Of a stretch of DNA of 64,000 nt, positions 8,242 through 39,188 are shown in pieces (position 1 is the stretch's first letter; the number at the start of each line of letters is the position of its first letter). This DNA comes from Candidatus Latescibacterota bacterium. GTDB taxonomy: Bacteria > Latescibacterota > UBA2968 > UBA8231. Location of the stretch: assembly GCA_965243025.1 (NCBI GenBank), contig CBDETY010000003.1:2240001-2304000 (forward strand), written 5' to 3'. The translations under genes and the position numbers were made by a program. The notes under the pieces were generated by a model. That model saw only the letters and a program-made list of their open reading frames with translations. It was not told the DNA's origin and made no database searches.

Positions 8242-8374
8242 GGCTTCGAGGGATTCTGTTTGAACGCCGCTGACCGCCGGCACCCGGCGCCCGTGCCGGG
8301 CAGTCCTCCAGGATGCGGGGGGCCCCCTGCCGGGCGACTGCCTTCCGCGAGCCGGCGTCCGGCCCCGAGGCCGC

Positions 8375-23463: not shown

Positions 23464-23491
23464 GGGGTTTCAAGTCCTCCGGGGGGAGGTC

Positions 23492-23767
23492 CTACGTCCT
23501 CTCCGTCAGCCTGCCGGACAGGTATTTATGGATTACGCTCGACAACAGCGTCTGATACGGGATGCCCTCCTCACGCGCTCGTGCATGGGCGAGATTGAAG
23601 TCGCGTTCGGTTACCCGCAGGTTGACCCGTCGCGTCTTGTTGAAGGTGTTGCGGGCAGCTTGACGCGCTGTCTCCATCTCACCTTCAACGGCATCGACGC
23701 GGCGCAGCTCGCCTCGCTCGAACTGCTCGAGAATTTCCTGCTCTTCAGTGTTCAGTTGGCCGCTCAC
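23492..23767 (-). CDS. CopG/BrnA-like antitoxin
   Basis: RVNLRV...AREEGIPYQTLLSSVIHKY ribbon-helix-helix motif. Confidence 0.85.
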   Translation of the reverse strand: MSGQLNTEEQEILEQFERGELRRVDAVEGEMETARQAARNTFNKTRRVNLRVTERDFNLAHARAREEGIPYQTLLSSVIHKYLSGRLTERT

Positions 23768-24050
23768 GATGATGCCTCCTCTGATAGTCGCGCGTCGCCT
23801 TCCGGCTGGGGATGATCGTCTTCAGGAACCTCGTGCCGTCAGTACCAATCACGAAAGGGACGAGGTGGAGGTACTGTTCGATGTCCACGACGTAGATCAT
23901 CTGGCCCGGATACCGGTCCTGATCGGGGTGTTCCAACACGTCCACAAGACCGCCTCGCTCGATCGCAGAGACGATGCGCTCGAATGACACTCCCCGCTGC
24001 ACAGCGAGTTGTCGGTTCTTATCCAGGTTCCAATCGAAGGCAGCAGTCAC
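23745..24050 (-). CDS. BrnT-like toxin
   Basis: FDWNLDKNRQL..RGVSFE...FLKTIIPSRKAT; overlaps the antitoxin gene. Confidence 0.85.
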   Translation of the reverse strand: MTAAFDWNLDKNRQLAVQRGVSFERIVSAIERGGLVDVLEHPDQDRYPGQMIYVVDIEQYLHLVPFVIGTDGTRFLKTIIPSRKATRDYQRRHHRERPTEH

Positions 24051-24197
24051 GTTTCCGATCTTCATCCATTGTGTGCATTTTGTCAACAGGCTTGGGTTCC
24101 CGTGGTCCGCATCCCAACCGGGTTATCCGAGGTGGAGCACATTATTCATTATCATTCAGCCGAGGAACGATACCCGAACAGGCGTGGAGGTACAGCA

Positions 24198-25622
24198 ATG
24201 GCGGACGAACGGCTGGCATACGAACCGGCGACCGAGTTGCTCGAGCTGATCGCGGCGAAACAGGTCTCTCCCGTGGCGCTGGCGGAGATGTTTTTCGAGC
24301 GCATCGCCCGCCTCGATCCGCGGATCGACTCCTTCCTCCTGGTGACCCGGGACCTGGCGATGAAGCAAGCCAAGGCCGCGGAGGACGCGGTGATGCGGGG
24401 CGACAGCCTCGGCGCCCTGCACGGCCTGCCCCTTCCAATCAAGGACACGCAGATGACCGCGGGCGTGCGCACGACCATGGGGTCCGTCGTGCACGCGGAC
24501 CGGGTGCCCGAGCGCAACGCCGCCGTGGTCGAGCGCGTCCTGAACGCAGGGGCCGTGATGCTCGGCAAGACCAACGTGCCGGAGTTCGGCATGGTGGGCA
24601 CGTGCGAGAACTCCCTGGGGGTGCTGGGACGCAACCCGTGGGATACCGGGCGGACACCCGGAGGGTCGAGCGGCGGAGCGGCCGCGGCCGTGGCGGCCTG
24701 CCTGTGCCCGGCGGCGACCGGAAGCGACGGAGGTGGGTCGCTGCGCATACCGGCCAACTTCTGCGGGGTCTACGCCATCAAGCCGACGCAGGGCCGGGTG
24801 TCGGGTTACACCGGACTCGGGGGGCCTCCGATGCCGAACATCTTCTCCCAGCCCGGGCCGCTGGCGAGGACGGTGCGGGACGCGGCGCTGCTGCTGCAGG
24901 TCATGGCCGGATTCGACCGGAGGGACCAGGCGTCCATCCGGCAGGCTCCGCCCGACTTCATGGCGGCCACGGAGCGGGATATCGACGGACTCCGGATCGG
25001 CTGGAGCGCCGATTTCGGGTTCGCGCCTGTCTTTCCCGAGGTCGTCGACGTCACCTCCAGGGCGGCGATGGTCTTCGAGAAGCTGGGCTGCGCGGTCGAG
25101 GAGGCCGACATGGTGCTCCCCGAGCCGTACGACTCGTTCGGTCCCATCCAGTCGGCGGGTTCTTACCACAACCTGGCGCAGTACCTCGAAGAGTACGGCG
25201 GCCGCATGACGGAGTTCGCGCGCTTCTATATCGAGATGGGGTCCCGGGTAACGACCGGGGATTACATCCGGGCCGAGGGGCGCATCGCCGAGCTGAAGGC
25301 CACGTTCGACGACGCGTTCGAGAGGTACGACCTCATCATGTCGCCCGTGTCCTGCTTCCCCGCCTTCCCGAACGAGACCTTCCCGGGCAGCATCACGGGG
25401 GAATCGTCGTATCCCGTGCAGTACTGGAACGGGACGTTCACCATGCACGGCAACGCCATCGGCCACCCGGCCGCGTCCGTGCCCGCGGGGTTCTCACCGG
25501 AGGGCCTGCCCGTGGGACTTCAGATTATCGGACGGAAATTCGACGAAGAGACGGTGCTCGCCGCATCCGCGGCGTTCGAGCGCGCGCGGCCGTGGACCGG
25601 GCGGAGGCCGCCCGTGTCCTGA
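24198..25622 (+). CDS. Amidase signature family enzyme
   Basis: IKD, GGSSGG and GSDGGGSLRIPA motifs; GGAGG RBS. Confidence 0.92.
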   Translation: MADERLAYEPATELLELIAAKQVSPVALAEMFFERIARLDPRIDSFLLVTRDLAMKQAKAAEDAVMRGDSLGALHGLPLPIKDTQMTAGVRTTMGSVVHADRVPERNAAVVERVLNAGAVMLGKTNVPEFGMVGTCENSLGVLGRNPWDTGRTPGGSSGGAAAAVAACLCPAATGSDGGGSLRIPANFCGVYAIKPTQGRVSGYTGLGGPPMPNIFSQPGPLARTVRDAALLLQVMAGFDRRDQASIRQAPPDFMAATERDIDGLRIGWSADFGFAPVFPEVVDVTSRAAMVFEKLGCAVEEADMVLPEPYDSFGPIQSAGSYHNLAQYLEEYGGRMTEFARFYIEMGSRVTTGDYIRAEGRIAELKATFDDAFERYDLIMSPVSCFPAFPNETFPGSITGESSYPVQYWNGTFTMHGNAIGHPAASVPAGFSPEGLPVGLQIIGRKFDEETVLAASAAFERARPWTGRRPPVS

Positions 25623-25821
25623 GGCTCAGAACGCCAGTCCAGACATTGACTGAGGATTTTCCAGACGCCATAAATCCGGCTCCGCTTGTGCACGTCCCCC
25701 CTGGGCTCGTAGCGAATTCCGTTCCCCTTGAACCGCACCTGCCCGTCCTCCTCGAGGATCCTGCGACGGCTTTCCGCTTCCGTCTCCACGTCCGGACTTT
25801 CTTCCGCCAATCCCCCGCCGA

Positions 25822-26862
25822 TCAGTTCGGATCCTCTGGTTCGGAACCGCATGAGGACGACTGGCTGGCGGATACGATGACCTTGGGGGCCGTGCCGGGC
25901 ACCGGGTAAGGCTCAATTGTCCCCACACCGCAGGACCACCGGCTACCCGATGCGGCGACCTTGGGGGCTGTGCCGGGAACCCGGTAGTACTCAGCACCGG
26001 AGGGGTCCACCTTGTAGCCGAGATCGGCGAAGGCCTGTACGGTAACGGCGCTGAGGACCCGGCGGACACCGGGCTCTCTTCCGAGGGTCATGATCTCGTT
26101 GCCGAAAACGGACTTTCGCCAGTGGGAGTCCCGGCCGATCCCCATGTGCTCGACGGGTACGCCTTCCCTGTCGTACGTGCCTCCGGCCTCCTCAAACGCC
26201 TGAAGTGCCTGACGGCCGGTGAAATGGGTTTCTTCCCCGGGAGTACACCAGGATGGAAGGGCCAGCATGTTTTCCCAGGGCGGGCGGGACGCCCCAAAGC
26301 CCAACACATGGCCCAGCTCGTGAATCATGGCGTCTCTGCCCAGGTCGTAGCTTTCCTCGAACACCCGGTCATTCAGGACCACACCGCCAATGAGGGGGAC
26401 ACGAGTGTCGCCGCCCCGGGTCATTATAGCGCCACCGTAACCGTAAATTCCCTCGGGCAACGAAGCCAAGGTCACGTACACGAGCACGTCATCGAGGATT
26501 CCACCGAAGTAAATCCGCTCGAACCATTCATCCCACCCGCATTGCGGCCACCACTCCTCCTCATTCGTATCGAATGGGTATTCTTCGAAGTGAAAATCAA
26601 TCACGTCAGTCGTTATGATGCTCTCCCACGTGGCCGCCGCCTCCTCGATCACACGACGCTGTTTTGGTGAGAATTGATGCCCGGAGGTATGACGCTGCTT
26701 GGCGAAGGGTCCAGGATCGGACACGAAAACCAGGTCGATGTTGAATCCGGGCCTGGGAGAAGGATCGAACAGCTCAGGCTCAATGGAGTTTGTCGGTGTG
26801 CGGTTGCAACCGGCTGAAACCAGAATCACTGCGACGAACGACAGAATCAGAGCGGTTTTCAT
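25822..26862 (-). CDS. Leishmanolysin-like (M8) zinc metallopeptidase lipoprotein
   Basis: Lipobox SAGC; HELGHVLGF...SHW...EIMT motifs. Confidence 0.75.
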   Translation of the reverse strand: MKTALILSFVAVILVSAGCNRTPTNSIEPELFDPSPRPGFNIDLVFVSDPGPFAKQRHTSGHQFSPKQRRVIEEAAATWESIITTDVIDFHFEEYPFDTNEEEWWPQCGWDEWFERIYFGGILDDVLVYVTLASLPEGIYGYGGAIMTRGGDTRVPLIGGVVLNDRVFEESYDLGRDAMIHELGHVLGFGASRPPWENMLALPSWCTPGEETHFTGRQALQAFEEAGGTYDREGVPVEHMGIGRDSHWRKSVFGNEIMTLGREPGVRRVLSAVTVQAFADLGYKVDPSGAEYYRVPGTAPKVAASGSRWSCGVGTIEPYPVPGTAPKVIVSASQSSSCGSEPEDPN

Positions 26863-27271
26863 GGCAGCACCTCGTAAAGGCCGATCGAGCCCCGAGAAAG
26901 GATACGGAACTCCGGCTCATAAGCTTATGGTTCCGGTGATGGGACCGTGGCCTTGATCCGGCCCCAGGTTTCGGCCTCCACGGCCGTCTGACCCGGGCCC
27001 AGCAGGCACGGTATTCTCCAAGGAGACAAAGCTCCTTCTGAGCACCCCTCCATGGTCTTGTTGACTATTACGGTCTTTGGCCTTGCCCCGTGAACGATGC
27101 AAACATCACCTGCGAGTTCCCGAGTATTCGATCGATTCAACAATAGATCCCCCATCCTTGATCTCAACCCCCCTTGGAACCTCCATGGAAGGGGGACCGG
27201 TTTTACCGCAGTACAATCAATATAACCGGCTGATCCTGAGAACACCTGCGGTTATCGTCGGGGGACAAATG

Positions 27272-28378
27272 TTACCGGCAGCGCTCCTCGAACACCCTGA
27301 CCCCGGTGCGCACCGTCGTCAGGGCCAGCTCCACCCGCTGCGCGAACGCGCCGTACATCCCCATCTCGGTGCCGAACGCCATGCCGTGCCGGCGCGAGGC
27401 GTAGTCCATCAGGTTGAGGCCCTCCCCGCGCCTGGTGGCGTCGAGCCAGAAGACCGCCTGCTGCGAGCTCGTGAACCACTTCGACGGGGCGTCCCCCGCC
27501 TCGGCGAGGGTGACCCCGGTGGCGGCGATCTCGCCGATGATCTCGCGCGCCGCCCGCTCCTCCCAGCGCTGGCTCTCCGCGTCCGGCAGCGCCCGCGCCG
27601 ACAGCCAGAAGCGGTCCTCCATCAGCGAGGATTCGTGCAGGTCGAAGCTGATCCCGGGCTCGATCTCCTCCATGAGGCGGCGCGTCACCCGCGGCTCCAC
27701 CGGCGCCCAGGCGGTGTCGTGGAAGCGGTTGATGTGCAGGATCTCGCCGTCGAAGCCGATGATCAGGGTGTAGGCGCGCCCGAAGTCCCCGGTCCCTTCG
27801 ACCCCGGGCTCGCCGGGGTTCATGTACACGCGGCGGCCGTACACCGGCTCGAGGATCCCCGGCTCCTCCCTGAACAGCCGCTGCAGCCGATGGAAGAAGT
27901 AGATCTGCGTGCAGGCCCGTTCCGGCTGCGGGCGGCTCAGGGTGTATCCGTACTCGCCGATCAGCACGAGGAGGAGGTCGTCCTCCTCGAACAGGACGTC
28001 CCCCTGTTCCCGCAGCAGGGACTCGAGCTCGTCGTAGGAGCCGAACTCCGGTGGTTCCCCGAGCCCGAGGGAGAGGGCGTGGGCGAAGCCGTTGAGGCCG
28101 ACCGGGTCGCGGGTCGGGATCACGTACACGGCGTGCTCGGTGTCGAGCCGGTCGATCAGCTCGACCGCGGCGCTGACCCCGGCGTGCTCGGTCGAGTGGC
28201 TGCCCGCGGTGATGAAGACGGCCGGCGCCTTGTTTCCTCCGCCGCGGGCCGCTACCAGGGGGGAGCCGTCGAGGGTGTGGCCGAGGGTGCGCACCTGCCG
28301 GCTGCGGCGCGTCACCTCGTCGAGGAGTTCTTCGTATTTCCAGTAAACCTTGTTATATTCGGTCTTAAGTGGTTTCAT
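27272..28378 (-). CDS. M14-family carboxypeptidase/desuccinylase-like protein; integration target with an element-supplied N-terminus
   Basis: GSHSTE (HxxE), INRF and DLHE motifs; the att core lies in codons YWKY. Confidence 0.8.
   Translation of the reverse strand: MKPLKTEYNKVYWKYEELLDEVTRRSRQVRTLGHTLDGSPLVAARGGGNKAPAVFITAGSHSTEHAGVSAAVELIDRLDTEHAVYVIPTRDPVGLNGFAHALSLGLGEPPEFGSYDELESLLREQGDVLFEEDDLLLVLIGEYGYTLSRPQPERACTQIYFFHRLQRLFREEPGILEPVYGRRVYMNPGEPGVEGTGDFGRAYTLIIGFDGEILHINRFHDTAWAPVEPRVTRRLMEEIEPGISFDLHESSLMEDRFWLSARALPDAESQRWEERAAREIIGEIAATGVTLAEAGDAPSKWFTSSQQAVFWLDATRRGEGLNLMDYASRRHGMAFGTEMGMYGAFAQRVELALTTVRTGVRVFEERCR
28335..28345. repeat. attL core TATTTCCAGTA
   Basis: Identical to 38467-38477; sits at the GC boundary. 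Confidence 0.85.
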
Positions 28379-28458
28379 AGGGAAAAAGCTCCATTTAGGG
28401 TAGTCTCTAAGATAGAATATCTTTTGGGATTATCTATAAGAACAACCAAAGTTAAAAC

Positions 28459-29358
28459 ATGGAAAAATCCGAAATCCGCCGAATCGTCGAGGGTCGAATC
28501 TCCCCCCATACTCGCAAGCAGTACGGATACTGCCTTGCTCGAATTGGCCGGGAAATCGACACAGACGAGGGATTATGTGAATACATCGAAGAGAAATTCC
28601 GGGAAGGGAAAGCACCCGGCTCGATACAGAATATCCTCAATGCGGTTCGTTGGGATTGCGAGAGAAACGGGAAACCGTCTCCCGTAGGTCCCCTAACAAG
28701 AGCCCGAATAAAGGCGATGAGACGGGAAGGACGCAACCGAGGCAGAGGGCAGGCAAAGGGGGTTCAGTGGCAACAAGCTGCGGAGGTTGCGGCAATGGCG
28801 GAACGGGACACCTCTCTTGTCGGTTTGCGGGATGCTGCCATGATTGCCGTTCAATCCGATGGACTCTTACGGGTTAGTGAGGTGGCGAAAATCCGAGTCG
28901 AGGACGTGCAGTTTGGAGAGGACGGAACCGCCACCCTCCGTATTCCCTACTCGAAGACAGACCAAGACGGCAGAGATTGCCCGGAATTATTCCTTGGCTA
29001 TCCTACTGCCAGCCGAATACGTGCTTGGTTGGGTGCTTCAGGGATTCAGGAAGGACCATTGTTCCGAAGAGTCCATATCGGGGCAAAGCGAACCGGAACG
29101 AGAATCGCCGATGGAGAGATGAGTACAGAAGGAGTGCGGGGAATTCTCAAGCGACGTTGCAAGGCTGCCGGAATTGAGGGAATTTCTGGCCATTCCTTCA
29201 GGGTAGGAAGCGCGCAATCCTTGGCGGTTATGGGAGCGAGCTTGATTGAGATGCAACAGGCTGGCCGATGGACAAGCCCCGAGATGCCGTATCACTACAG
29301 CAAAAAACAGCTTGCCGCAAAAGGTGCCGTTGCCCGCCTCAGATACGGGCAGCAATAA
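28459..29358 (+). CDS. int: Tyrosine recombinase/integrase, Cre-like
   Basis: LRDAAMI..GLLRVSE, SKTDQ, GHSFRVG and GRW..MPYHY catalytic motifs. Confidence 0.92.
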   Translation: MEKSEIRRIVEGRISPHTRKQYGYCLARIGREIDTDEGLCEYIEEKFREGKAPGSIQNILNAVRWDCERNGKPSPVGPLTRARIKAMRREGRNRGRGQAKGVQWQQAAEVAAMAERDTSLVGLRDAAMIAVQSDGLLRVSEVAKIRVEDVQFGEDGTATLRIPYSKTDQDGRDCPELFLGYPTASRIRAWLGASGIQEGPLFRRVHIGAKRTGTRIADGEMSTEGVRGILKRRCKAAGIEGISGHSFRVGSAQSLAVMGASLIEMQQAGRWTSPEMPYHYSKKQLAAKGAVARLRYGQQ

Positions 29359-29393
29359 AGCCCCCGGGAGGCGATTTCCTGGGGGGCTTTATT
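29354..29393. terminator. Bidirectional intrinsic terminator
   Basis: AATAAAGCCCCC...GGGGGCTTTATT hairpin between convergent genes. Confidence 0.8.
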
Positions 29394-29421
29394 GTCTATT
29401 TTCTGGTTTTGTCTGGCCCTC

Positions 29422-29832
29422 TCAATTTCCTGCCATATCCAGAACACCAACAAAGGCCACTACTCCCAAGAAGCCATACCACAACCGACTCGACCTTTTC
29501 CTCTTTCTCGTCCCTTCCTTGTAGCTCATGGCGAAAGCTTTCTTGTATATTTCGCTTTCGCCTTCCTGGGATAGTTGGAGCTTTTGGGGAACATTATCTC
29601 CCCGTGTCATCCACCACTGGGGGATGACCCAGATTGTTCCTCCCACGATTCCGGATGCAAATCCCGCACCCACAGCCACCAGCCTGGTTTTCGCCATGCT
29701 GGCCTCATGTGCGGCCACCTCTCCTTCAATTTTTCCGTCAATGGCCCCTTTCTTGGTCACGACCACGACGGTATCCTGAGTAGCCCCCACGGAGCCCGCC
29801 AACAGGCATACGAACAGCAGCAATTTTCCCAT
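29422..29832 (-). CDS. Accessory membrane/exported protein
   Basis: AGGAGAGG RBS; signal-like MGKLLLFVCLLAGSVGA; two further hydrophobic segments. Confidence 0.65.
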   Translation of the reverse strand: MGKLLLFVCLLAGSVGATQDTVVVVTKKGAIDGKIEGEVAAHEASMAKTRLVAVGAGFASGIVGGTIWVIPQWWMTRGDNVPQKLQLSQEGESEIYKKAFAMSYKEGTRKRKRSSRLWYGFLGVVAFVGVLDMAGN

Positions 29833-29945
29833 GTCCCTCTCCTTTTCGATGGGTGAGGTGGGAAAGTAATGAGAATCTAACCGATGATGCCAGGGCGGGC
29901 GCAATAGCTCGGGGATGAAGGCGGCGGCTATTGGGAGCTATTTCC

Positions 29946-31025
29946 TTACTCCAGCCCCGCCAATCTCAAAGCTTCGTCAAGCTCGACACCACTACCGGCC
30001 AGGGAAGCGGCTGCCCTCGCCTTCGACATAACGTCAGAGGCAAACAGCCTGTCGAAAGACAGGGTTACCGGAGTTTCCAGCTTCTCGGATAGTTCCGCCT
30101 CGACGGATCGCGCAACCGGGCTGACGCTACTGTGCAAAAACTGCCTCCAAGCCTCTCGCCTTGCTGCCCCGTCTCCACGTTCTGAGACAAGCGACAGAGG
30201 CACCCCGCAAGCCTGCAACAGACTGTGGGCAACGTCTTCCCGTAGTTCTCTGAGGCTGTCGGGAGGGTCTGCGCCAATTCTGACGGGTACGAAGTCTTTC
30301 CGGGGAGCGGTGTTCATCCCCTCCCCAAATCCCCCGGCTGTAGTCTCGACAAGGGCGGTTTTTCCCTTCAGGGTCTTCAGGGTCTGCCGCAATTCCCCGT
30401 ATGCGTCGAATTCTTCCCCGTCTACCTCTGCCGGTTCCGGATCGCTTGGAACCGGGAGTAAATGGCCAACAATTCCGCCAGTTTCTTCGCTCAGACGCTT
30501 TTCGAGGTTCCCGAGTAGGGTAGAGGTAAGGGAGGCTCGCTTCCAGGGAGAAGCGCCAAATTCGGGCAATTCTGCCTGATAACTCCATCGGCAATGAATC
30601 ACTTGGTCTGCCGGTGCTCGTTGGTAGGTTAAGGTCGATGAAGGTCCGTACACCGTACACCGGTACCGCCAACTGTTGCGGCTGGCTTTCCCGGTTACGG
30701 AAAAGTCACCAACCGGCAGCAATTCCAGCTTCCCCCCCTCGACTTGGATCACTGCCAACCCTTCGCCTCGAAGTACCAACTCTTGCCCGATCCATCCGAG
30801 AAACTCAGGAGTCAAAGCCTGTGTAAGGGGTGTAGCAGGATCTACAGCCGCTGAGGAGAAGGCCCGTCTCCACAATCCCGCAGCCGTTTCTATCGCAGCC
30901 ACACCCCTTACAAGCTGGCTGTCGTCTGAATCTGCCTGAGATTCGACGGCATTTAGCAGAATGTTGGTGAACCCGTCTACCTCGGTAGATCGCTTCTCAG
31001 TCTTTGTAAATGGCCAAAATTTCAC
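29946..31025 (-). CDS. Phage portal protein (HK97-like)
   Basis: MKFWPFTKTEKRS N-terminus, LVLRGEG, VIHCR, GASP, ACGVP..L, and E.ELSEKL. Confidence 0.85.
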   Translation of the reverse strand: MKFWPFTKTEKRSTEVDGFTNILLNAVESQADSDDSQLVRGVAAIETAAGLWRRAFSSAAVDPATPLTQALTPEFLGWIGQELVLRGEGLAVIQVEGGKLELLPVGDFSVTGKASRNSWRYRCTVYGPSSTLTYQRAPADQVIHCRWSYQAELPEFGASPWKRASLTSTLLGNLEKRLSEETGGIVGHLLPVPSDPEPAEVDGEEFDAYGELRQTLKTLKGKTALVETTAGGFGEGMNTAPRKDFVPVRIGADPPDSLRELREDVAHSLLQACGVPLSLVSERGDGAARREAWRQFLHSSVSPVARSVEAELSEKLETPVTLSFDRLFASDVMSKARAAASLAGSGVELDEALRLAGLE

Positions 31026-31034
31026 CGGTAAAAA

Positions 31035-31394
31035 TTACTCCGGAAGAGTGGTAATACTGTCTGACTTGCAGTGCAACCGTTGCCACCTTTTTCGATCCAA
31101 AGCCTCGATTCGGGCAATTACGAGGGTCTCCCCGTCATGTCGTATCCAATCGTCTGTTTTGTACCGCTTGGAATACCGTACGGTAAAGACTGCCTCGTTT
31201 TCTTCGCCTCTGTGGGTCAAGAATCCCGTAGCGGTGACAAGGTTCGATTCTGCTCCCGGATCGCGTCTGCACCACACCTTAGAGAAGGTTTCCGGGGTCC
31301 GTCTGCCCTCGGGGATTGGTCCGTGTTCGAGGATTGAATCGAGGGCAAAGCGCAGCCTCTGGCGTGTAGTTTTCGCAAGATCAGGCATGTTCAA
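31035..31394 (-). CDS. Head closure / head-tail adaptor protein
   Basis: FTVRY...DWIRHDGETLVIARIE...LHC pattern; position in the head module. Confidence 0.65.
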   Translation of the reverse strand: MNMPDLAKTTRQRLRFALDSILEHGPIPEGRRTPETFSKVWCRRDPGAESNLVTATGFLTHRGEENEAVFTVRYSKRYKTDDWIRHDGETLVIARIEALDRKRWQRLHCKSDSITTLPE

Positions 31395-31689
31395 TTACGG
31401 CTGCCGTATGCTTTCGCCAGGTAGACAACAGCCCCTTTGCCCCGCTGTTTGTGAAGGCGGTTGAATAGTTGGGGTGTTGGCTGCCGTCGATGTCGTAGAG
31501 ATACGAGACAAAGCGTACCGTTGCCTCTTTCTTTGTCGCCATTGGTGCTTGTGGTGCGTACCGTTCGATTTCCGCATTGGCAACCCCGCAAAGGTCCGTC
31601 AACCGCTGTTCAATGGCTGCCTCAAGCGTCTCTGTTGTGTCTGCGATGATGCGAAGGGCAACCCCTATTTTCTGCACGTCTACAGCCAT
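31381..31689 (-). CDS. Head-tail connector protein (gp6-like)
   Basis: LRI...A.AEIERY..AP..KEATVRFVSYLYD...LLSTWR pattern. Confidence 0.7.
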   Translation of the reverse strand: MAVDVQKIGVALRIIADTTETLEAAIEQRLTDLCGVANAEIERYAPQAPMATKKEATVRFVSYLYDIDGSQHPNYSTAFTNSGAKGLLSTWRKHTAAVIEHA

Positions 31690-32591
31690 AGCAACCGCTC
31701 CGCTTTGTGTCGCCGTCTCGGGAGGTTGTGGTATTCCGGTTCTCCCCAACCTTCGGAAGCGTCTGTACTCCCGATTACCAGTGCTCGTAAGATGGCAGCC
31801 GAGTACGCCATTGTTACCCCTTGGATAATCCCCTCTGACAATCCCCTGTCCAAGTGCGGCCGTACGTAAACCGGGGCAGCTTCGATCTTGTCGAGAAGGT
31901 CGTCTACCATTCCTTCCGGTACGTCGATCTCAACCGAAAGACCGTTTTCGAGTCGCTTCCCTCGTACTGTTCCCCGTGAAGTACTGGCCAATGGGCTGCC
32001 GTAGCTGGACAATACCGCCAGTACTTCCCGCTCGCTGAGGGATTGAAACATTGTGTCAATTGCTTCAGGGGTGAAGGTGGCATACCTACATTCGGGACCA
32101 CTGCACCGGCAGCCAAGGGAGGTATCTTGGGGCACGAAAGCCCGTATCATTGGACCTTGTTTCGCTCGTGCCTCCACTGTGGAAGCTGGATAAGCCGATC
32201 TATCCACAACACCCAACCCGGAAAGGTTGGCAAGGTCGATTACTCTCGTGCCGTCTTCGTAGTGTTCGGAAATCACTTCAAATTCCGCTGATAATCCGCG
32301 AAGGACGCCAGAACTAACGAGGGTAAGGGTATCTCTTGCCTCTGAGGTTTCAGGCAGTACAGCCTCCATTTTCAAGCTTTCCGGTCCGTCTCTGAGAATC
32401 AGCCCGGCACCGGTACGGGCAAGGGGTCTGTCCCGCTGATGTTGACGGTTCAAAACAACATCGCTACAGAGAAGGGAGCCGGGAGCGAACCTTTCAGGCT
32501 GACCACCAACAACAGCAATGTCGCCGTAGTTGATGACTGTACCGAGAAGTCTTTTCCCGTCTGCCCTTATCTCTGTAAAACGTGTTTCCAT
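31680..32591 (-). CDS. HK97-family prohead protease with a second degenerate protease-like domain
   Basis: ERFAPGS, QHQRDRPLART, GLSAEF and VVDRSAYP motifs. Confidence 0.85.
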   Translation of the reverse strand: METRFTEIRADGKRLLGTVINYGDIAVVGGQPERFAPGSLLCSDVVLNRQHQRDRPLARTGAGLILRDGPESLKMEAVLPETSEARDTLTLVSSGVLRGLSAEFEVISEHYEDGTRVIDLANLSGLGVVDRSAYPASTVEARAKQGPMIRAFVPQDTSLGCRCSGPECRYATFTPEAIDTMFQSLSEREVLAVLSSYGSPLASTSRGTVRGKRLENGLSVEIDVPEGMVDDLLDKIEAAPVYVRPHLDRGLSEGIIQGVTMAYSAAILRALVIGSTDASEGWGEPEYHNLPRRRHKAERLLWL

Positions 32592-33812
32592 CTATGCGGC
32601 AACCTGAAATTTCAACAGCTCCCAACCGTCTGCCCTTGGCACGTCGAAGGCAAACAGAACGTGCAAGGTGAGCCCGACAATTCCCTTGCTGGCATCGGTG
32701 TACGGATCGCGGATCAATCGCGGAGCCTGCCAGATTGGAGCGACGGCGGAGCCCATCTTTCGACAGGCAAGGGCAAGCTGGATCTTGCTGGCTACGTCTG
32801 GAACATGGGCAGAAACCCGGCAACCTCCCGAGATCCGCTTGACGTGTTCCGCTGCGGTTGTGTCGCTGTTGGTTCCCCCGAACTTGCTTGACATATGAGC
32901 GTTTGTCTTGGCGCCAATCAGCAACTTGATATCGCCGTTTTCGAGTGCGTACTTGCCGTCTACACTGTCGGCAATGGCTGCGATATAGTCCGACCTTCCT
33001 GCCTCTGCGGTTGGATCAGATGGAGCCGTAAGGGGTCCAGAGGACGAATCGAAGAATCCCGACACGTGTTGATCTGTCCCTTCTCCCGCGAGGATTTCCT
33101 TATCCATCTCTTGCGCGATTGCCCCGGAAAGGTCGTCTCGAAGGGCAGCCTCCATACCCTGAAATACTGCCGCGTCTTCGATGGCGAAGGTATACCGGGC
33201 AGTCATTCTCTTCGGAGAAAGCGTCTTCACGCTCCACGTCGCAGCCGTCGAATCGTGAGCGGCTGCCTTCTCTTTCAATGCGGGAGTGTTCCCGCCAGTG
33301 AGTACGGGATACTGACGCTCGCCAACACCAACAGACGGAAACCGAACGCCAGCCCACAGTGCCGCGCCTTTGGCGAACACCCTTGAAAGAATCGGGTCTT
33401 GAGCGGCTGGCACATCGGCGGGAGCGGTTGTGTTGGCATCGGCTCGCCGCTCTACCGGTGCGATAGCCTCCCACGGAACCGAGAAATCAGGCAGGTTGTG
33501 CTCTTTCTGCCATTCGTGTTCTGCTCCGTCTGCAATCCGTTCTTCCGTTGCGGCTGCCCCGAGGTACCGACGTAATTCCAGTTTCCCGGCAAGTTCCCGT
33601 TTCTCGGTTTCTTCCCGGCTGCCTTCCTCTGCCGTCTCGGTTCCGTCAAGTACGATTGCTGCCCGTACTTCGGTCTCAAGTTCCTGAAGTCGCTTTGTCA
33701 GCCCGTCGAGGGTCTGCCGTTCTTCTGTACTGAGGGATTCCTTAGCAAGTAACGAGCCTGCCTTTTCGCGGTGCTCGCTTTGTTCGAGTTGGAGTTTCTG
33801 AAGCTTTGTCAT
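32592..33812 (-). CDS. HK97-fold major capsid protein with N-terminal coiled-coil (delta) domain
   Basis: Helical first ~110 aa; LSPKRM, L..AIA.EMDKEIL.G and IRDPYT..G.V motifs. Confidence 0.88.
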   Translation of the reverse strand: MTKLQKLQLEQSEHREKAGSLLAKESLSTEERQTLDGLTKRLQELETEVRAAIVLDGTETAEEGSREETEKRELAGKLELRRYLGAAATEERIADGAEHEWQKEHNLPDFSVPWEAIAPVERRADANTTAPADVPAAQDPILSRVFAKGAALWAGVRFPSVGVGERQYPVLTGGNTPALKEKAAAHDSTAATWSVKTLSPKRMTARYTFAIEDAAVFQGMEAALRDDLSGAIAQEMDKEILAGEGTDQHVSGFFDSSSGPLTAPSDPTAEAGRSDYIAAIADSVDGKYALENGDIKLLIGAKTNAHMSSKFGGTNSDTTAAEHVKRISGGCRVSAHVPDVASKIQLALACRKMGSAVAPIWQAPRLIRDPYTDASKGIVGLTLHVLFAFDVPRADGWELLKFQVAA

Positions 33813-34113
33813 TGGTTTTCTCCTTCAAGAGATTTCGTATGTATGCCTTGAAAAATTTCACCTCAAGCAACCCGTGCCGCTCGTGAATTTGGGTATGGCA
33901 CTGGCAGCAAAGGCTGACAAGGTTGGTCAGTTTGTAACCGATTTCCTCAGCAACAACCGGAGAGAGTCTCTTTCCCCTGTTGGGAAGGGGGATACGGTGA
34001 TGTACGTGCAATTTTCCACGTCGATAGCAACTCTTGCACTCGTACCCGTCTCGCTCAAGTGCCTGTTTTCGGACTCGCTGCCATCTGGCGGTTTTGTAGA
34101 GGTTAGAAATCAC
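33742..34113 (-). CDS. HNH endonuclease (HK97 gp74-like terminase partner)
   Basis: RWQRVRKQALERDGYECKSC..VHH...NLVSLCCQCH. Confidence 0.9.
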   Translation of the reverse strand: MISNLYKTARWQRVRKQALERDGYECKSCYRRGKLHVHHRIPLPNRGKRLSPVVAEEIGYKLTNLVSLCCQCHTQIHERHGLLEVKFFKAYIRNLLKEKTNDKASETPTRTKRAPRKGRLVTC

Positions 34114-34144
34114 GGGTTTCCCTATCTCCTATTTTTGGAGAATC

Positions 34145-35743
34145 CTACACCGCAGCCGCTCGCAAGGGTCTCCGCAGACGGGTTTTCGTCATCAGAGGTT
34201 CAGCGATACCCGCAGCAATCACGGCGGCTGACAGGAGGTCGATACGGCCCCTTGACGTTGATTTATCGAGACCGGGGTTTCCGTTGCCATCTCTTCGAAT
34301 CGCGGAATTGGAAACCGCCGTTGCGAAACTCAACGATTCCCTCAGCTTCAATTTTTTGCCGATGAAAAGGCGTTGTAAGGCTCGAACATCTCTCCCGCCA
34401 TCCTTCCCGGCACCAACACGGCGAAACTCGTATGGCCATCGAAGTTCCGCATTTTCCAGGAAATCCTTTACCTCAGCATCCTTGTAGCCATCCGCAGCCA
34501 GCCGATACACGGTACAACCCTTCAGATCGGCAGCCACGTCTCCAAGAAACTGGGATACTGGCGTAACCCTTCCCGGATAGGTGCAAAGTTCTCCCCCTTG
34601 AATCATCATATCATATCTGGCGCCATCTCGTTTCCCTCGCTCGATGGGAGAAGGATTGTCCCCGAAAGCCATCCACGTTTCGCACCTTCCCGTTGCTGGC
34701 CATATGGCGAACACGGCACTTGCCGCCGTCGCTTCCCCCATATCCAACCCAAGGCACACCACACCTTGACGGGGAGGAAGTTCGTCAACCAGACACCCCC
34801 GATAGTCTGAAAGCGTGAAGATCATTTCGCGGGTTGGCGATTGGGGGAGGTTTAAATCGAAGGCGAGGAAGGTTGATCTATCCGAAGGGGTAGCCTCGAC
34901 TCTGGCTGCTTCGTCTCGCATCCATTCAGCGGATTTGATCCCGCAAGGGATTCCAGGGTTACCGGCTGCCCATACCTCGGGACTGTGTATGTCAACGTCC
35001 TCCCCGTCTGGCGCGTACAAGTGTACGGCGGTTGTAGGGAGGTTCTGACGCTCAAGCAGCTCCTCAAGGAGTGGAGACTCCCCCCGGATAGATAGCGCAA
35101 GGAAACGCCCGTTGCGGGCGCTTGTGGCGGTTCTGAGTCCCGCGATCAATTCACGGTCTCGCTCCGTCATCAAACCCAATTCGTCAGCAATCGAAAAATC
35201 GAATCCGCTGGAATGTCCCGCTGATTTGTCGGCACTCAGAAACTCCGCCGTCGATCCGTTCTCCGTGTTTACCCATCCCGGAGCGGGAGACTTGCGGAAA
35301 TCCAGATCATCGAGGTTCGAAGCCTTCGCGATCTCTTCCATTTGCCGCAGAAGCTCAGCCGCTTTCTCTCGTGTTACCGAGACCGTACCGATCCGCAGCC
35401 CCGCCCGTTTCAAGGGTCCCGCGAGGAGTGCCAGACATAGCACCGCGACAATTGCAGACTTGGCGTTTTTTCGTCCGAGACAGAGAAGGGATTCCCGGTG
35501 TGTCAGTGCATCGCGTATGAAGCTGATACCGTACTCGGGCAACTCCATAGGCTGCCCCGCGAGAGGATGGCCAGGGGGTACCTTCAGGCAATCTCGCGAC
35601 CATTCCGCTACGGCTTGGGCAGGGTCTGCCGGTGTTGGCGGTAAAGGTTGTGCCTTCTGTTTCTTCAGCTTCTTACGAGCACGGCACTTGCGTTGTCGTT
35701 CTCTCGCGGCTAACCGTTCTGCTGTCTTGTCTTTGTATGGCAT
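34145..35743 (-). CDS. terL: Terminase large subunit
   Basis: Walker A GRKNAKS, Walker B SIADE, WAAGNP, nuclease LGLDMG and RIDLLSA motifs. Confidence 0.9.
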   Translation of the reverse strand: MPYKDKTAERLAARERQRKCRARKKLKKQKAQPLPPTPADPAQAVAEWSRDCLKVPPGHPLAGQPMELPEYGISFIRDALTHRESLLCLGRKNAKSAIVAVLCLALLAGPLKRAGLRIGTVSVTREKAAELLRQMEEIAKASNLDDLDFRKSPAPGWVNTENGSTAEFLSADKSAGHSSGFDFSIADELGLMTERDRELIAGLRTATSARNGRFLALSIRGESPLLEELLERQNLPTTAVHLYAPDGEDVDIHSPEVWAAGNPGIPCGIKSAEWMRDEAARVEATPSDRSTFLAFDLNLPQSPTREMIFTLSDYRGCLVDELPPRQGVVCLGLDMGEATAASAVFAIWPATGRCETWMAFGDNPSPIERGKRDGARYDMMIQGGELCTYPGRVTPVSQFLGDVAADLKGCTVYRLAADGYKDAEVKDFLENAELRWPYEFRRVGAGKDGGRDVRALQRLFIGKKLKLRESLSFATAVSNSAIRRDGNGNPGLDKSTSRGRIDLLSAAVIAAGIAEPLMTKTRLRRPLRAAAV

Positions 35744-35859
35744 AAGTCAATTTGGCACGTCACACCCGGTCACGGCGTGACACCATTCGAGCACAGATCA
35801 GGAACCCCCACGGTCCCTGGTCCCTCTTTTCCAATTTGCTACAGGGTCCCGAAGGGGTC

Positions 35860-36715
35860 GTACTGTCATGTTGACATCTATCTGCGAGATTCTCGAAGAT
35901 GGAATTGGGCAGGATCGCTTAGGGATTGGGTATCCAGCCTGCGCTTGAATGCCACTGCAAAGAATCTCAATCATCAGGGGAAGTGCCGAGACGAAGTTTC
36001 TCGCAAATCCCCTCTCGAAAACAACTATCCACGACTATTGGAGAGGAGGGACATTGCCTCTCTGGATTGCTGTTTCTGACGCTTTTGTACCGTCGCCTAT
36101 TACCATATACGCGCACGATTAAAGTACTACCATATATTTTCTGTATCTTGTTCATTGTCAATGAGTTTTTCATTGTCAACGTAACCTAAGTACTTAAATA
36201 ACTACCTATATGTACAACGCATCTTTCCGTACTACCCCCCAAGTACGGACGAGCGGTACCCGACAACCGCGCGCGTACGCGTGTGCGCGGTAATGGTAAT
36301 AGGCGAGGGCAAAATACGGGGCAACGCTCCACTTTTCGGGGGAGCCTTGTTCGACAGTACCTGAAACTTGCCCGATTCGGGGCAAAAACAGCTCTACAAT
36401 CGCTTATCGCCTTCATACCCTACTTCCGACATCCTACCACATTTGAGCACCGTTACAAGCCCTCAAATTTGCCCCGATTCGGGCAAATGATTTTTGGCAG
36501 GTTTTGAGATTTTATCTGCGAGATTCTCGCAGATAGCCAGCCCGGTACCGTCTGTTTACCGATTCTCCAAAAGTAGTAGACAGGAAAAAACATTTTTCAA
36601 GCCCGGTTCCTCTACCCGGCTGTGGCAACCGGGCAAGGGAAGCTGGCGGATTACCCTTCGGGGCTGCCAGCTTCCCAACTACCTCCAAGATTGCCCCGGA
36701 AAGCCCTCAAATCTC
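35860..36715. promoter_or_regulatory. Divergent control region or putative origin with repeated palindromes
   Basis: TATCTGCGAGATTCTCG(A/C)AGAT twice, TTGCCC(C)GATTCGGG(G)CAA twice, TTCATTGTCAA twice, AT-rich tract, GC-rich hairpins. Confidence 0.6.
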
Positions 36716-36719
36716 GCAT

Positions 36720-37418
36720 ATGGCAGCCAAACGAACCGCACCCCATACGCACACCCTCGAATACACTGGCGATTACGTAGAGTGCCGAGATTGCCCCTTT
36801 TTGCTGCACCTTGGGGAGATCGGAATACCGGAGCGGTTCGAGGTTATGTCTTGGCCAAACGAAGAAATGGCGAGACTTCGAGAAGCGGAGTCGAGATACT
36901 GGGGAAGACCCTTCAGTTATCGGATTTCCGGGATGGACGAATACGGAAAGCCCGTCAACTCTGAACAGGGAACCGAAGCGAAAGAGGAAGAGCGGGAAGG
37001 ATTTCCAGACCGTCCACCCGGCAGAATTGGAAAATGGCGGTTGTTGAAGTGCCGAACCTTTCACACTTGCAGCATTTGCGAAGGGGAGATTTTCGAGGGG
37101 ACCTTGTGCTATCGGACGGCGGGAACAACCGGGGGAAGAGGTGGGAAATACCGCAAGCGGTATGCCTGTCTCGATTGCACTGACGAAATCACACCGCAAG
37201 CGGCAGAGCGGGAAACGGATCCTGACGTAATAGAGCGGCTACGGAAGGCACTGGCGGAAGGCAAGGGAGAGGCTCGAAGGCTCAAACTGCCTCGGCCCTG
37301 CCAGCTATGCGGAATGATCCTGCACCGGGGACAGAATGGGTTACGATGGCGTACCGCGGCGTACGAGAATGGGAAGCGTCGAGGGTTGGACCTATTCGTG
37401 CATCCCGAGTGCTCGTAA
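36720..37418 (+). CDS. Cys-rich putative zinc-finger protein
   Basis: CRDC, CSIC..CLDC and CQLC..HPEC clusters; the only long ORF here. Confidence 0.6.
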   Translation: MAAKRTAPHTHTLEYTGDYVECRDCPFLLHLGEIGIPERFEVMSWPNEEMARLREAESRYWGRPFSYRISGMDEYGKPVNSEQGTEAKEEEREGFPDRPPGRIGKWRLLKCRTFHTCSICEGEIFEGTLCYRTAGTTGGRGGKYRKRYACLDCTDEITPQAAERETDPDVIERLRKALAEGKGEARRLKLPRPCQLCGMILHRGQNGLRWRTAAYENGKRRGLDLFVHPECS

Positions 37419-37560
37419 ACTTTACCGAATTTTGTGGTTTTTTTTAACAAAAACTACCTTTTCGTAGTTTCATAACCTTCACAAAAACAATCAGTTGCGA
37501 AGCTGTTTTTTCAATGCTCTAAACCCAATAAAAACACGAGTTTATACATAGCTTGTACTT

Positions 37561-37589
37561 TTGACAGAACCAACCTAATGCCCTACCTT
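37561..37589 (+). promoter_or_regulatory. Sigma70-like promoter
   Basis: TTGACA-17 bp-TACCTT preceded by an AT-rich tract. Confidence 0.55.
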
Positions 37590-37674
37590 TATCTCTATGT
37601 CTGGTGCATTCGGCACTGGGCACGGAAACTCTCGACTACTTTGCGTAGTCGAGCAACGAAAGGATAAAGCAAAA

Positions 37675-38049
37675 ATGAGGAATTGTGTGATCTACGCAGA
37701 CGAGGCGGAGAAAGATAGGTACTTCTTCGACCGGGAACTCCACAAACAAGAGGACTTCGACATGGGATGCGTTGTCGCTGGCGTCTTCCAGCCACCGACT
37801 AACGCATCGTTTGGCGCCAAAGATGGGGTTACTCACTTGGTCATATCAGAACGTTATTACAGTGCTCATGATGTGATGAAGGGTGAGGAAATCAAACCCT
37901 TCAAGGGAAAGGGAGTTGATACCGTCGAGCTTCTTTGGATCGCAGAGGATTTCAAGCATATTTCGACACGAGAGCCCCGCCTCACTTCCGCTGAACTCCT
38001 CAAACGCACTGCCGATAATCAACCCCCAAGTTCGATACCAAAGTGGTGA
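37675..38049 (+). CDS. Hypothetical protein
   Basis: AAGGA RBS before ATG 37675; downstream of the promoter. Confidence 0.55.
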   Translation: MRNCVIYADEAEKDRYFFDRELHKQEDFDMGCVVAGVFQPPTNASFGAKDGVTHLVISERYYSAHDVMKGEEIKPFKGKGVDTVELLWIAEDFKHISTREPRLTSAELLKRTADNQPPSSIPKW

Positions 38050-38073
38050 GGAACCTTTTTTTGGAGACAGTCA

Positions 38074-38259
38074 ATGAATGAATTCAAGGTAGGGGATGTT
38101 GTTCGTCTTCGTAGCGGGGGACCCAAAATGACCGTAGACACTTCTCAGCCTGGGGACATCAACCCCAATGAAATACCCACAACATGGATTGAGAGAGGAA
38201 CCGCCAAAAGAGGAAATTTTGCCCCCGAACTTCTGAAACTCGTAGACGAAGAAGACTGA
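38074..38259 (+). CDS. YodC/DUF2158 family small protein
   Basis: FKVGDVVRLRSGGPKMTV signature; GGAG RBS. Confidence 0.85.
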   Translation: MNEFKVGDVVRLRSGGPKMTVDTSQPGDINPNEIPTTWIERGTAKRGNFAPELLKLVDEED

Positions 38260-38275
38260 GAAACCCCGCCAAGCG

Positions 38276-38309
38276 AAAGCCCCGGAATCACTCGATTCTG
38301 GGGCTTTTT
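38276..38309 (+). terminator. Intrinsic terminator
   Basis: AAAGCCCCGGAATC-loop-GATTCTGGGGCTTTTT. Confidence 0.8.
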
Positions 38310-38466
38310 CATGTATTTTCCCCAATCCTTAGCGCCACCTTTACGAGGTTGAGCACTCATGTAGGTAACTGCTCGTTTGGATTGAAGTGCTCAAATGAGC
38401 ACAAACTGGCTATTTCCATGAAAATATCGTAACCTATTGTTTTTATTGAAATTAACGAATACTTGC

Positions 38467-38477
38467 TATTTCCAGTA
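38467..38477. repeat. attR core TATTTCCAGTA
   Basis: Identical to attL; adjacent to the displaced host start (minus strand GAGGATACC ATG CGA ATC TAC TGG AAA). Confidence 0.85.
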
Positions 38478-38601: not shown

Positions 38602-38967
38602 GTGGAATGGAGCAGCTTCATCGCGCCCGGCGTTGTCGGAGGGTTGCTCGGGCTTTACCTGAAGAGCATCGGCCAGCGAATCGATGACCTGAAAACTTCC
38701 ACGGCACAGCAATTCGAAGTGATAGACAAGCGGTTTGACGAGACAAGCAAGCGGTTTGACGAAACAAGCAAGCGATTTGACGAAACAAGCAGGCGACTCG
38801 ATGCCTTGCAGATCGAGGTAACCTCGCTGGGCAAGGGAGTGGCTCGAATAGAGGGACGGCTCGATCCCTACGACCGCACAACGAGCAGCCCACACTCGGT
38901 AAAAGAGGAACGGATGAAGACAGCTTCCCCCCCATCCTCCCAGGAACCGCCGGGTCAGGGCCAGTAA
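38602..38967 (+). CDS. Small membrane-anchored coiled-coil protein
   Basis: N-terminal transmembrane segment, KRFDETS x3, ARIEGRL; AAGGAG RBS. Confidence 0.7.
   Translation: MEWSSFIAPGVVGGLLGLYLKSIGQRIDDLKTSTAQQFEVIDKRFDETSKRFDETSKRFDETSRRLDALQIEVTSLGKGVARIEGRLDPYDRTTSSPHSVKEERMKTASPPSSQEPPGQGQ
38728..38790 (+). repeat. 21-bp tandem repeat x3 (heptad KRFDETS)
   Basis: AAGCG(G/A)TTTGACGA(G/A)ACAAGC repeated three times. Confidence 0.9.
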
Positions 38968-39188
38968 TGGATTGGAGCAGCTTCATCGCGCCTGGGGTTG
39001 TCGGGGCTTTGCTCGGGCTTTATTTGAAGAGCATCAGTCAGCGTATCGATGACGGAACCAAGCGACTTGACGAGATAGGCAGGCGAATCGATGCCGTGCA
39101 GACCGAAGTAACGTCCCAGGGCAAGGCTCTGGCGCGAATCGAAGGCCGGCTCGATCCATACGACCTGGAGAAGAACCGCAGCGAGTAG
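38967..39188 (+). CDS. Paralog of the preceding coiled-coil protein
   Basis: MDWSSFIAPGVVGALLGLYLKSI...ARIEGRLDPYD; TAATG stop/start coupling. Confidence 0.7.
   Translation: MDWSSFIAPGVVGALLGLYLKSISQRIDDGTKRLDEIGRRIDAVQTEVTSQGKALARIEGRLDPYDLEKNRSE

Follow-up and report, generated by a model that had tools for sequence, protein, structure and literature searches.

Capsid-forming satellites were described in 2022-23 from Proteobacteria and Firmicutes, where they fall into three independent clades. Phage-inducible chromosomal islands of the capsid-forming kind (cf-PICIs) have been shown experimentally to make their own small heads and to take the tails of a helper (10.1101/2022.09.08.507074). 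Here, we describe an integrated element of 10,132 bp from a Candidatus Latescibacterota genome. The element lies in a 64-kb stretch of contig CBDETY010000003.1, which we call the window (64,000 nucleotides), and positions given without a locus name refer to it. An earlier note on this DNA had taken the element, hereafter the island, for a minimal capsid-forming satellite, and our analysis confirms this view: the island is bounded, was recently mobile and encodes a head but no tail. The note had also seen in it a family even more reduced than those known. This part did not hold, given that genes for primase, helicase, Rep or DnaD-like proteins are present in the integrated relatives we scanned, and the lineage as a whole is therefore not replication-less.

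The island resembles the cf-PICI EcCIEDL933 of Escherichia coli O157:H7 in its format, an integrase island of ~10-15 kb, and in its set of genes for capsid, S78-type protease, portal, two connectors, HNH endonuclease and large terminase (TerL) without a tail gene. The expected lifestyle is alike as well, in that small heads would be self-made and only tails stolen. In EcCIEDL933 the genes are ordered capsid-protease-portal-closure-connector-HNH-TerS-TerL, whereas the island has TerL-HNH-capsid-protease-adaptor-closure-portal; this arrangement, with TerL first and portal last, had been singled out by the earlier note, is conserved in relatives and also departs from the printed cf-PICI orders. 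EcCIEDL933 moreover possesses a P27-family small terminase (TerS), an AlpA-type regulator and a DUF927 primase, none of which is present in the island. At the sequence level, TerL is 20% identical (E 2e-4, in a database of 12 proteins) and the protease 29%, and capsid and portal show no significant similarity. Judged by sequence, gene order and the TerL tree, the island lies outside the proteobacterial cf-PICI clade, EcCIEDL933 being the cf-PICI used for the sequence comparison.

SatelliteFinder defines a cf-PICI by 11 core components, of which the published types hold 9-11 (PMC10085698). The island has eight of the 11, namely integrase, capsid, protease, portal, TerL, HNH, head closure and adaptor, and is without a regulator (of the AlpA, MerR or Stl type), a primase-replicase and TerS; no tail or holin gene was recognised either. 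Components were judged by Pfam cut-offs or PHROG matches, and the adaptor through its homologues (six of ten).

Phages of the HK97/HK022 cos type need an HNH protein for packaging. The island shares with them the toolkit of HK97-fold capsid, S78 protease, HNH and TerL, and its nearest phage TerL matches are of this type, the best among 50,697 phage records being 26% identical; the portal had no match at E 1e-5 in the same records. It differs from these phages in having no TerS, tail, lysis, replication or immunity gene, in carrying the portal at the end of the module and in having a quarter of the genome size.

The Streptomyces satellites MulchRoom and MiniFlayer encode their own encapsidation genes and lack key replication genes (PMC10690885). 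They are described there with a terminase, portal, capsid, head-to-tail adaptor, HNH and a membrane protein of unknown role, all of which have counterparts in the island, and MulchRoom shares with it a tyrosine integrase; their codon usage matches the tRNA genes of the helpers. Compared by that description only, they differ in having a small terminase, a scaffolding protein and co-isolated virulent helpers (PMC10690885), and the island is smaller and has the conserved portal-last order. By analogy, helper dependence for replication would have a published precedent in these satellites. Other likenesses concern the 'twilight-zone' HK97-fold genomes from metagenomes, which measure ~9-10 kb, end in terminal repeats and encode an HK97-fold capsid, in many cases together with an integrase but seldom with a tail gene (PMC13669383); the dominant group in that paper has no portal or terminase and an encapsulin-like capsid, whereas the island lineage has portal, TerL and HNH. 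Virion-encapsidated integrative mobile elements (VEIMEs) are mostly without capsid genes (10.1101/2022.07.26.501625). We found no satellites of the island's gene order described in the literature, with the reservation that the supplementary tables of PMC10085698 and PMC13669383 may list members, and the lineage, a widespread one, is apparently undescribed.

Boundaries and core genes of the island

The island spans positions 28346-38477 and is flanked by an 11-bp direct repeat, TATTTCCAGTA, with the attachment (att) cores attL at 28335-28345 and attR at 38467-38477, neither assigned to a strand. This sequence occurs exactly twice in the window (0 in 100 shuffles). The 12 kb around the island contain no fewer than 60 families of repeats that reach 11 nt, which makes the repeat alone weak evidence; the empty site is decisive. 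In both same-genus genomes (G001 and G002), segment 27273-28345 directly adjoins segment 38467-38585, and the two flank alignments share exactly 11 bp (8242-9314 and 9304-9419 of locus L010; locus L011 is alike), which are the attL core. The exact ends that the earlier note had read from the repeats, and with them the size of the unit, were thereby corroborated. In a contig from a sponge metagenome, 28334 is likewise followed by 38467, which leaves out 10,132 bp, and 11 letters are shared; this joint is borderline (shorter side of 29 letters, depth 5.8, aligned at 90% likeness) and serves as supporting evidence only. The island is thus polymorphic in a natural population.

Insertion took place by site-specific recombination at the 11-bp core in a peptidase-like gene. 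The target corresponds to codons 4-7 of a 368-amino-acid gene (27272-28378, minus strand) with a weak Peptidase_M14 match, for which the island supplies a new 5' end (28346-28378, minus strand; MKPLKTEYNKV...), 12 codons replacing the first three. Orthologues in G001 and G002 start with M(N/K)IYWKYEELL, preceded by a GAGGA ribosome-binding site, and the native ribosome-binding site and first codons (MRIYWK, then a stop) are stranded to the right of attR on the minus strand. No tRNA gene was found within the window. The guanine-plus-cytosine (GC) content is 0.536 within the island and 0.70 on either flank, and third-position GC is ~0.55 in island genes compared with 0.94 in the flanking host gene. 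The earlier note's characterization of the host as high-GC applies to the host genome, the element itself being at 54% GC.

The core of the island comprises a tyrosine integrase and a leftward operon ordered TerL, HNH, capsid, S78 protease, head-tail adaptor, head closure and portal. Pfam and PHROGs bear out this content, together with four small accessory open reading frames (ORFs), as the earlier note had listed it. All eight core genes are open, with lengths as in relatives, and both att cores are likewise intact; the reported freedom from frameshifts stands. TerL (532 amino acids; 34145-35743, minus strand) matches phrog_9 (E 4.3e-48) and PF20441, and its Walker-type residues and DE pair are invariant in 17 homologues. 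It begins with a basic N-terminal extension of ~40 amino acids, with 14 K/R in residues 1-45, in which E15, R18 and R21 are invariant and M1, P2, R14 and R16 nearly so among the 17 homologues; phage TerLs and profiles align to the protein only from residue 40-43 onward. The HNH endonuclease (33742-34113, minus strand; PF01844 E 5.7e-6, phrog_119 E 4.4e-17) is followed by the HK97-type major capsid protein (406 amino acids; 32592-33812, minus strand; PF05065 E 8.7e-7, phrog_10) and by the prohead serine protease of the S78 family (31680-32591, minus strand; PF04586 E 5.8e-12, phrog_2263, phrog_80), which has a C-terminal extension of ~150 amino acids.

The next ORF is listed up to 31749 (122 amino acids) and probably starts at ATG 31689, which gives a protein of 102 amino acids (31381-31689, minus strand). 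It has no direct match itself, and its alignment found none among PDB sequences. Of ten aligned homologues, however, five match phrog_442 ('head-tail adaptor') and one phrog_40 ('Ad1'), and we therefore call this ORF between protease and closure an Ad1-type adaptor. The head closure or head completion protein (Hc1; 119 amino acids; 31035-31394, minus strand; PF05521 E 6.9e-6, phrog_25 E 1.4e-4) and the portal (359 amino acids; 29946-31025, minus strand; PF04860 E 3e-12, phrog_12) complete the operon. Judging from these predicted proteins, the island encodes every recognisable part to build, fill and, with two connectors, close a small HK97-type head.

The integrase is short (299 amino acids; 28459-29358, plus strand; PF00589 E 3.9e-13, phrog_1 E 1.4e-14), with the motifs RVSE at 138, HSFR at 245 and tyrosines at 278/280, and is 47% identical to that of a sister element in G002. 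Directly after its stop codon lies a 37-bp terminator-like hairpin (29354-29390), which is 89% identical to positions 7344-7379 of locus L093. The latter hairpin sits at the opposite end of the G002 sister and is the sole non-coding similarity between the two elements.

Among all ORFs of the island, Pfam and PHROGs revealed no tail, holin, lysis, replication, TerS or regulator (helix-turn-helix, HTH) family. The absence of recognisable tail, replication, TerS, repressor and lysis genes, as first reported, is upheld within the reach of these two collections.

Relatives, selection and replication genes

The search of metagenome-assembled genomes and viromes that the earlier note had advised recovered the same gene order at ~35 loci, distributed over Alphaproteobacteria, Dehalococcoidia, Pseudomonadales and the host's own phylum; TerL-HNH-capsid-protease-adaptor-(head closure)-portal recurs wherever the sequence of the locus suffices. 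TerL has 1027 homologues at E <= 0.001 among 8000 candidates scored, and of the 119 non-self clusters listed, whose identity is 56-81%, 33 reach 8-12 kb in their longest contig. The nearest relatives, P0002-P0010 from ENA contigs, have TerLs 71-81% identical to that of the island. Twelve loci from GTDB genomes stem from Alphaproteobacteria, Rhodospirillaceae, Dehalococcoidia, Pseudomonadales and Bauldia metagenome-assembled genomes, several of them on contigs of 0.36-2.5 Mb, and ten show the gene order, the exceptions being L015, which ends after the capsid gene, and L023, which has a split TerL only. In L023, a Bauldia contig, the lineage TerL is in two pieces with no other core gene detected nearby, and this is probably a decayed copy. 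The order is also present in 13 IMG/VR contigs (L024-L036), with TerL 37-49% identical, and in four of five JGI metagenome contigs. Within the host's phylum, five of 168 genomes match, the host (G000) included, and elements were found in G002, G150 and G167, all of the host's family.

Several relatives appear as complete units. Terminal repeats of 43-103 bp were detected in four of 14 IMG/VR and one of five JGI contigs tested, and the contigs that have them measure 9,762, 11,306, 9,736, 11,731 and 9,134 bp. In G150, two 22-kb contigs each represent 2.1 tandem copies of units of 10.4-10.5 kb, and a third contig is a partial variant. The lineage element therefore exists as a free unit of ~10 kb and is no fragment of a larger one. 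Homologous loci turned out to be units of ~9-12 kb and not full prophages, and an intact or internally deleted tailed prophage is rejected as an account of the island, because the empty sites define a 10,132-bp unit and complete relatives measure 9.1-11.7 kb without a tail PHROG. The sister element in G002 (9,568 bp, repeats of ~20 bp) occupies a different site, which is empty in the host genome.

The three G150 variants (contigs C9, C12 and C6; L091, L092 and L102) are 82-99% identical and have no integrase. They carry an endolysin of the GH108 + PG_binding_3 type, a DksA-like zinc-finger ORF and an 870-amino-acid protein with an adaptor N-terminus, for the remainder of which LamG-like phage proteins are the nearest, weak look-alikes (score 0.89, line 0.9). 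Proteins of 694-931 amino acids occupy the same position in L025, L031, L032 and L035. A further locus of G002 (L094; C1:4739000-4758999) encodes a second lineage TerL (38% identical) and HNH among ORFs of up to 837 amino acids, with no capsid, protease or portal gene beside them.

A quick maximum-likelihood TerL tree of 40 rows placed the 23 rows from module loci on one side of a branch of length 1.73, with a support of 100 in the Shimodaira-Hasegawa-like approximate likelihood-ratio test (SH-aLRT), and 16 other IMG/VR TerLs and that of EcCIEDL933 on the other. L030 and L095, for which fewer than 300 amino acids were extracted, and the partial loci L012, L015, L019, L023, L026, L029, L034 and L036 were not included. 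The phylogeny sets the lineage apart from EcCIEDL933.

The head genes of the island are close to those of the G002 sister, with 74% identity for capsid, 81-82% for portal and 77% for adaptor. The ratio of nonsynonymous to synonymous substitution rates (dN/dS) for this pair is 0.10 for capsid, 0.11 for portal and 0.24 for adaptor, with synonymous sites near saturation, and these values of 0.10-0.24 indicate that the head genes are under purifying selection, a point on which the earlier note had made its proposal depend. In contrast, TerL is only 38-40% and HNH 47% identical between the two elements, and the island TerL has closer counterparts in a metagenome (67% identity) and on a 788-kb contig of Dehalococcoidia (60%). 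In a metagenome variant (run X6), the integrase and the portal-to-capsid part are covered at ~95% identity, but the TerL part is not. Given these divergent identities, the packaging and the head cassettes have different histories.

Integrated relatives, scanned upstream of TerL, hold one of several replication modules in the stretch from integrase to TerL: a zinc-ribbon primase with an AAA_25 helicase and HTH_17 in L016, a Toprim-AAA_25 primase-helicase in L017, a PF03090 Replicase in L020 and a DnaD/HTH_36 initiator in L014. Altogether, 25 ORFs upstream of TerL were scanned (three from the spacer of the window and 22 from relatives) and yielded primases, a helicase and replication initiators; no TerS family was among the PHROG matches listed for them (25 of 36 families). 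Because the relatives examined showed no TerS and yet have replication genes, the lack of TerS looks lineage-wide and the lack of replication genes does not. The integrated members without a recognisable replication gene are this island and its same-genus sister in G002, in which only four ORFs of 122-199 amino acids, and no large replication gene, lie upstream of TerL; one of these is a homologue of Neck1/tail-completion proteins (phrog_26 E 8.9e-11). No recognisable replication gene was present either in the G150 episome or in L025, L028 and L032, which are circular. Across five circular or episomal relatives, 42 accessory ORFs matched 18 PHROG families, and none of these is a tail family. 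Replication-initiator matches among these ORFs show one member per family, and two repeat earlier E-values, so that all of them probably come from a 326-amino-acid ORF of L077.

Accessory genes, spacer and surroundings

Between integrase and portal lies a predicted membrane protein (29422-29904, minus strand; 160 amino acids as full ORF, 136 from the likely start ATG 29832) with three hydrophobic stretches of 19 residues and no Pfam, PHROG or PADLOC match. On the plus strand, the rightward group begins with a Cys-rich protein of 232 amino acids (36720-37418), for which four homologues were found among 1.84 billion representatives and none in a word-indexed search. In its AlphaFold2 (AF2) model, residues 97-232 reach a predicted local distance difference test (pLDDT) value of ~80-90, and this C-terminal half resembles tandem PARP-type zinc fingers, the top PDB matches in Foldseek being PARP1 F1F2 (E 8e-5, template-modelling (TM) score only 0.2). 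Tandem PARP-type zinc fingers bind DNA breaks. Since the TM-scores are low, the likeness to PARP1 is a lead and no assignment; the model is consistent with a protein that is probably DNA-binding. A fold search in BFVD returned uncharacterised phage proteins only.

The next ORF (150 amino acids; 37597-38049, plus strand) is an orphan and maybe no real gene: Pfam, PHROGs and PADLOC gave no match, the Atlas search returned unnamed eukaryotic clusters with low recognition, and the AF2 model is unusable (pLDDT 35). It is followed by a 61-amino-acid DUF2158 protein (38074-38259, plus strand; PF09926 E 2.4e-8) and, downstream of it, a terminator-like hairpin at 38275-38308. Neither Rep nor TerS emerged among the small ORFs from Pfam, PHROGs, PADLOC or AF2 with Foldseek, an outcome that leaves the earlier note's description of them in place, and a role in defence was dismissed, as PADLOC has no match inside the island.

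The two divergent operons are separated by a spacer of 976 bp (35744-36719, no strand), a candidate control and cos/ori region. It contains a perfect 23-bp palindrome (36513-36535) with a near copy 634 bp away (35879-35900), and a 19-bp hairpin in two copies (36368-36386 and 36468-36486). No Rfam family was detected in the spacer, one sub-threshold snoRNA match falling outside the island. Hidden genes were also considered and rejected here, the tblastn similarity to proteins of relatives and of EcCIEDL933 being no better than chance; the 40-residue match of a 76-amino-acid spacer ORF to the EcCIEDL933 connector is attributed to chance because the database held 12 proteins.

Just beyond attR, two tandem paralogous small genes (38602-39188) encode proteins of 121 and 73 amino acids, each of which combines a hydrophobic stretch at the N-terminus with a coiled coil, and Pfam gave weak coiled-coil matches only; the larger has three repeats of a short KRFDETS-type unit, and the sister genomes have one gene copy at this place. 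To the left of the interrupted gene, a second stretch of lower GC (0.59-0.67; 23000-27270) has no counterpart in the 19-kb regions of G001 and G002 and may be another variable island. Its ORFs at 23984-25909 and 25822-26862 (641 and 346 amino acids) matched no PDB sequence.

Mode of life and competing explanations

We consider it probable that the island is an integrated, recently mobile capsid-forming satellite, cf-PICI-like in its working, which belongs to a separate and widespread lineage defined by the conserved module. In such a scheme, excision would give a circle of ~10 kb, which would then be multiplied by functions provided by a helper, the host or one of the orphan proteins. The circle would be cut by TerL and HNH at a cos site, probably located in the palindrome-rich 976-bp spacer upstream of terL, and TerS may be replaced in DNA recognition by the conserved basic arm at the N-terminus of TerL or by the zinc-finger protein. 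The DNA would be packed into self-made small heads. Once filled, these would acquire helper tails through their adaptor and head closure proteins, and lysis functions of the helper would release them.

A number of points weigh against this interpretation. Outside the island, the host genome (96% complete) yielded no match to portal, capsid, TerL_nuclease, Terminase_6N, tape-measure or sheath families, and no circular joint was present among the contigs of four sequencing runs, contigs being prone to drop rare forms. For this copy, particle, induction and helper have not been observed; its cos site, its capsid size and whatever replaces TerS are inferred. With no recognisable replication or regulatory gene, the copy could be unable to multiply, and given that some relatives have an endolysin and the 870-amino-acid adaptor fusion, the lineage may include more autonomous elements. 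The gene calls of the relatives come from a crude ORF caller, and the clustering in the TerL tree is partly built in, because its rows were retrieved by TerL similarity; the informative parts of that tree are the branch length and the position of EcCIEDL933.

Since the host genome holds no resident helper, a helper would be an infecting phage. A resident one was rejected on the basis of the six negative Pfam families, and G001 and G002 are also without a tape-measure match. Small host contigs were discarded as helpers as well, contig C1 being built of a plasmid-like unit of ~5 kb and C2 carrying pentapeptide and tetratricopeptide repeat (TPR) genes. With about three tandem copies of its ~5-kb unit, C1 (L096, 14,617 bp) is probably the multimeric assembly of a small plasmid. 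It codes for a Replicase of PF03090, the Pfam family to which the Replicase of the satellite relative L020 also belongs, along with a NikA-like protein, an MmeI C-terminal fragment and a recombinase-like ORF. The G150 assembly includes two related contigs, C4 and C11 (L100-L104; 23-28 kb, GC 0.58-0.59), with a tape-measure gene, an unrelated portal of 476 amino acids and a TerL 22% identical to that of the island. That these are tailed phages co-assembled with the satellites, with a helper pairing in G150, is plausible but unproven.

The lack of replication genes could also mean that the copy is stranded or decaying, having lost a replication and regulation module, so that it perhaps excises but is no longer multiplied or induced. 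Such a history would explain why the island has the 976-bp spacer and orphans where the scanned integrated relatives hold primase, helicase, Rep or DnaD-like genes, and it would fit the near absence of homologues for the 232-amino-acid protein (four in 1.84 billion representatives), their absence for the 150-amino-acid ORF and the host genome without a helper. We nevertheless regard it as unlikely: none of the eight core genes is damaged, nor is either att core, the spacer retains no remnant of the replication genes of relatives, and the island is polymorphic in a natural population. Moreover, the independent G002 sister shares the layout without a large replication gene and has head genes under purifying selection, and the circular L025, L028 and L032 and the G150 episome also do without a recognisable replication gene.

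The episomal forms of G150, which exist in tandem as units of 10.4-10.5 kb without integrase and with endolysin and adaptor fusion, invite the idea of a miniature, largely autonomous temperate virus of 10 kb, whose connectors would work with an unrecognised attachment device instead of a borrowed tail, and the proteins of 694-931 amino acids at the same position in L025, L031, L032 and L035 could be seen in the same light. For the island we find this very unlikely, as it has neither a large protein of this kind nor an endolysin but a head closure protein instead. In HK97-type necks, the head closure protein prepares heads for tail joining. The G002 sister adds a Neck1/tail-completion homologue, no polymerase or replication gene is found in the island, and the G150 assembly itself holds tailed-phage contigs as a possible helper. 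A head without tail or lysis functions, encoded by genes under purifying selection, might finally be expected of a capsid system that the host has domesticated for its own use, like gene transfer agents or encapsulins. The probability of this is close to negligible considering the empty site in both sister species, the base composition (third-position GC ~0.55 against 0.94 in the flanking host gene; GC 0.54 against 0.70), the presence of integrase, att repeats and the island's own TerL and HNH, and the scatter of relatives across phyla as 10-kb units.

Taken as a capsid-forming satellite, the island provides an intact member, with clean boundaries, of what seems to be a further independent lineage of such elements. 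For comparison there are ~35 loci, circular or tandem forms in several cases and, in sister species, empty sites that are reciprocal. For annotation, this means that such head-only units of 10 kb are probably not broken prophages. The finding also raises the questions of how a cos machine of HNH and TerL finds its DNA without TerS, how a head-encoding element without a recognisable replication gene multiplies, and whether packaging and head cassettes are exchanged as separate units between distant hosts. A more far-reaching reading, which we put forward tentatively and think rather doubtful as a whole, combines these points: a fourth, cross-phylum lineage of capsid-forming satellites without TerS, in which cos is read by the conserved basic arm at the N-terminus of TerL (or by a zinc-finger partner), sublineages exchange the TerL-HNH cassette separately from the head cassette, and a sub-branch without replication genes, this copy included, depends on helpers for replication, tails and lysis. 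What merits experimental work is that TerS is lacking, that cassettes are swapped and that the lineage spreads across phyla. If this reading were true, the island would be the most reduced head-encoding satellite known outside Actinobacteria, and it would suggest that tail-swapping particles carry elements between phyla.

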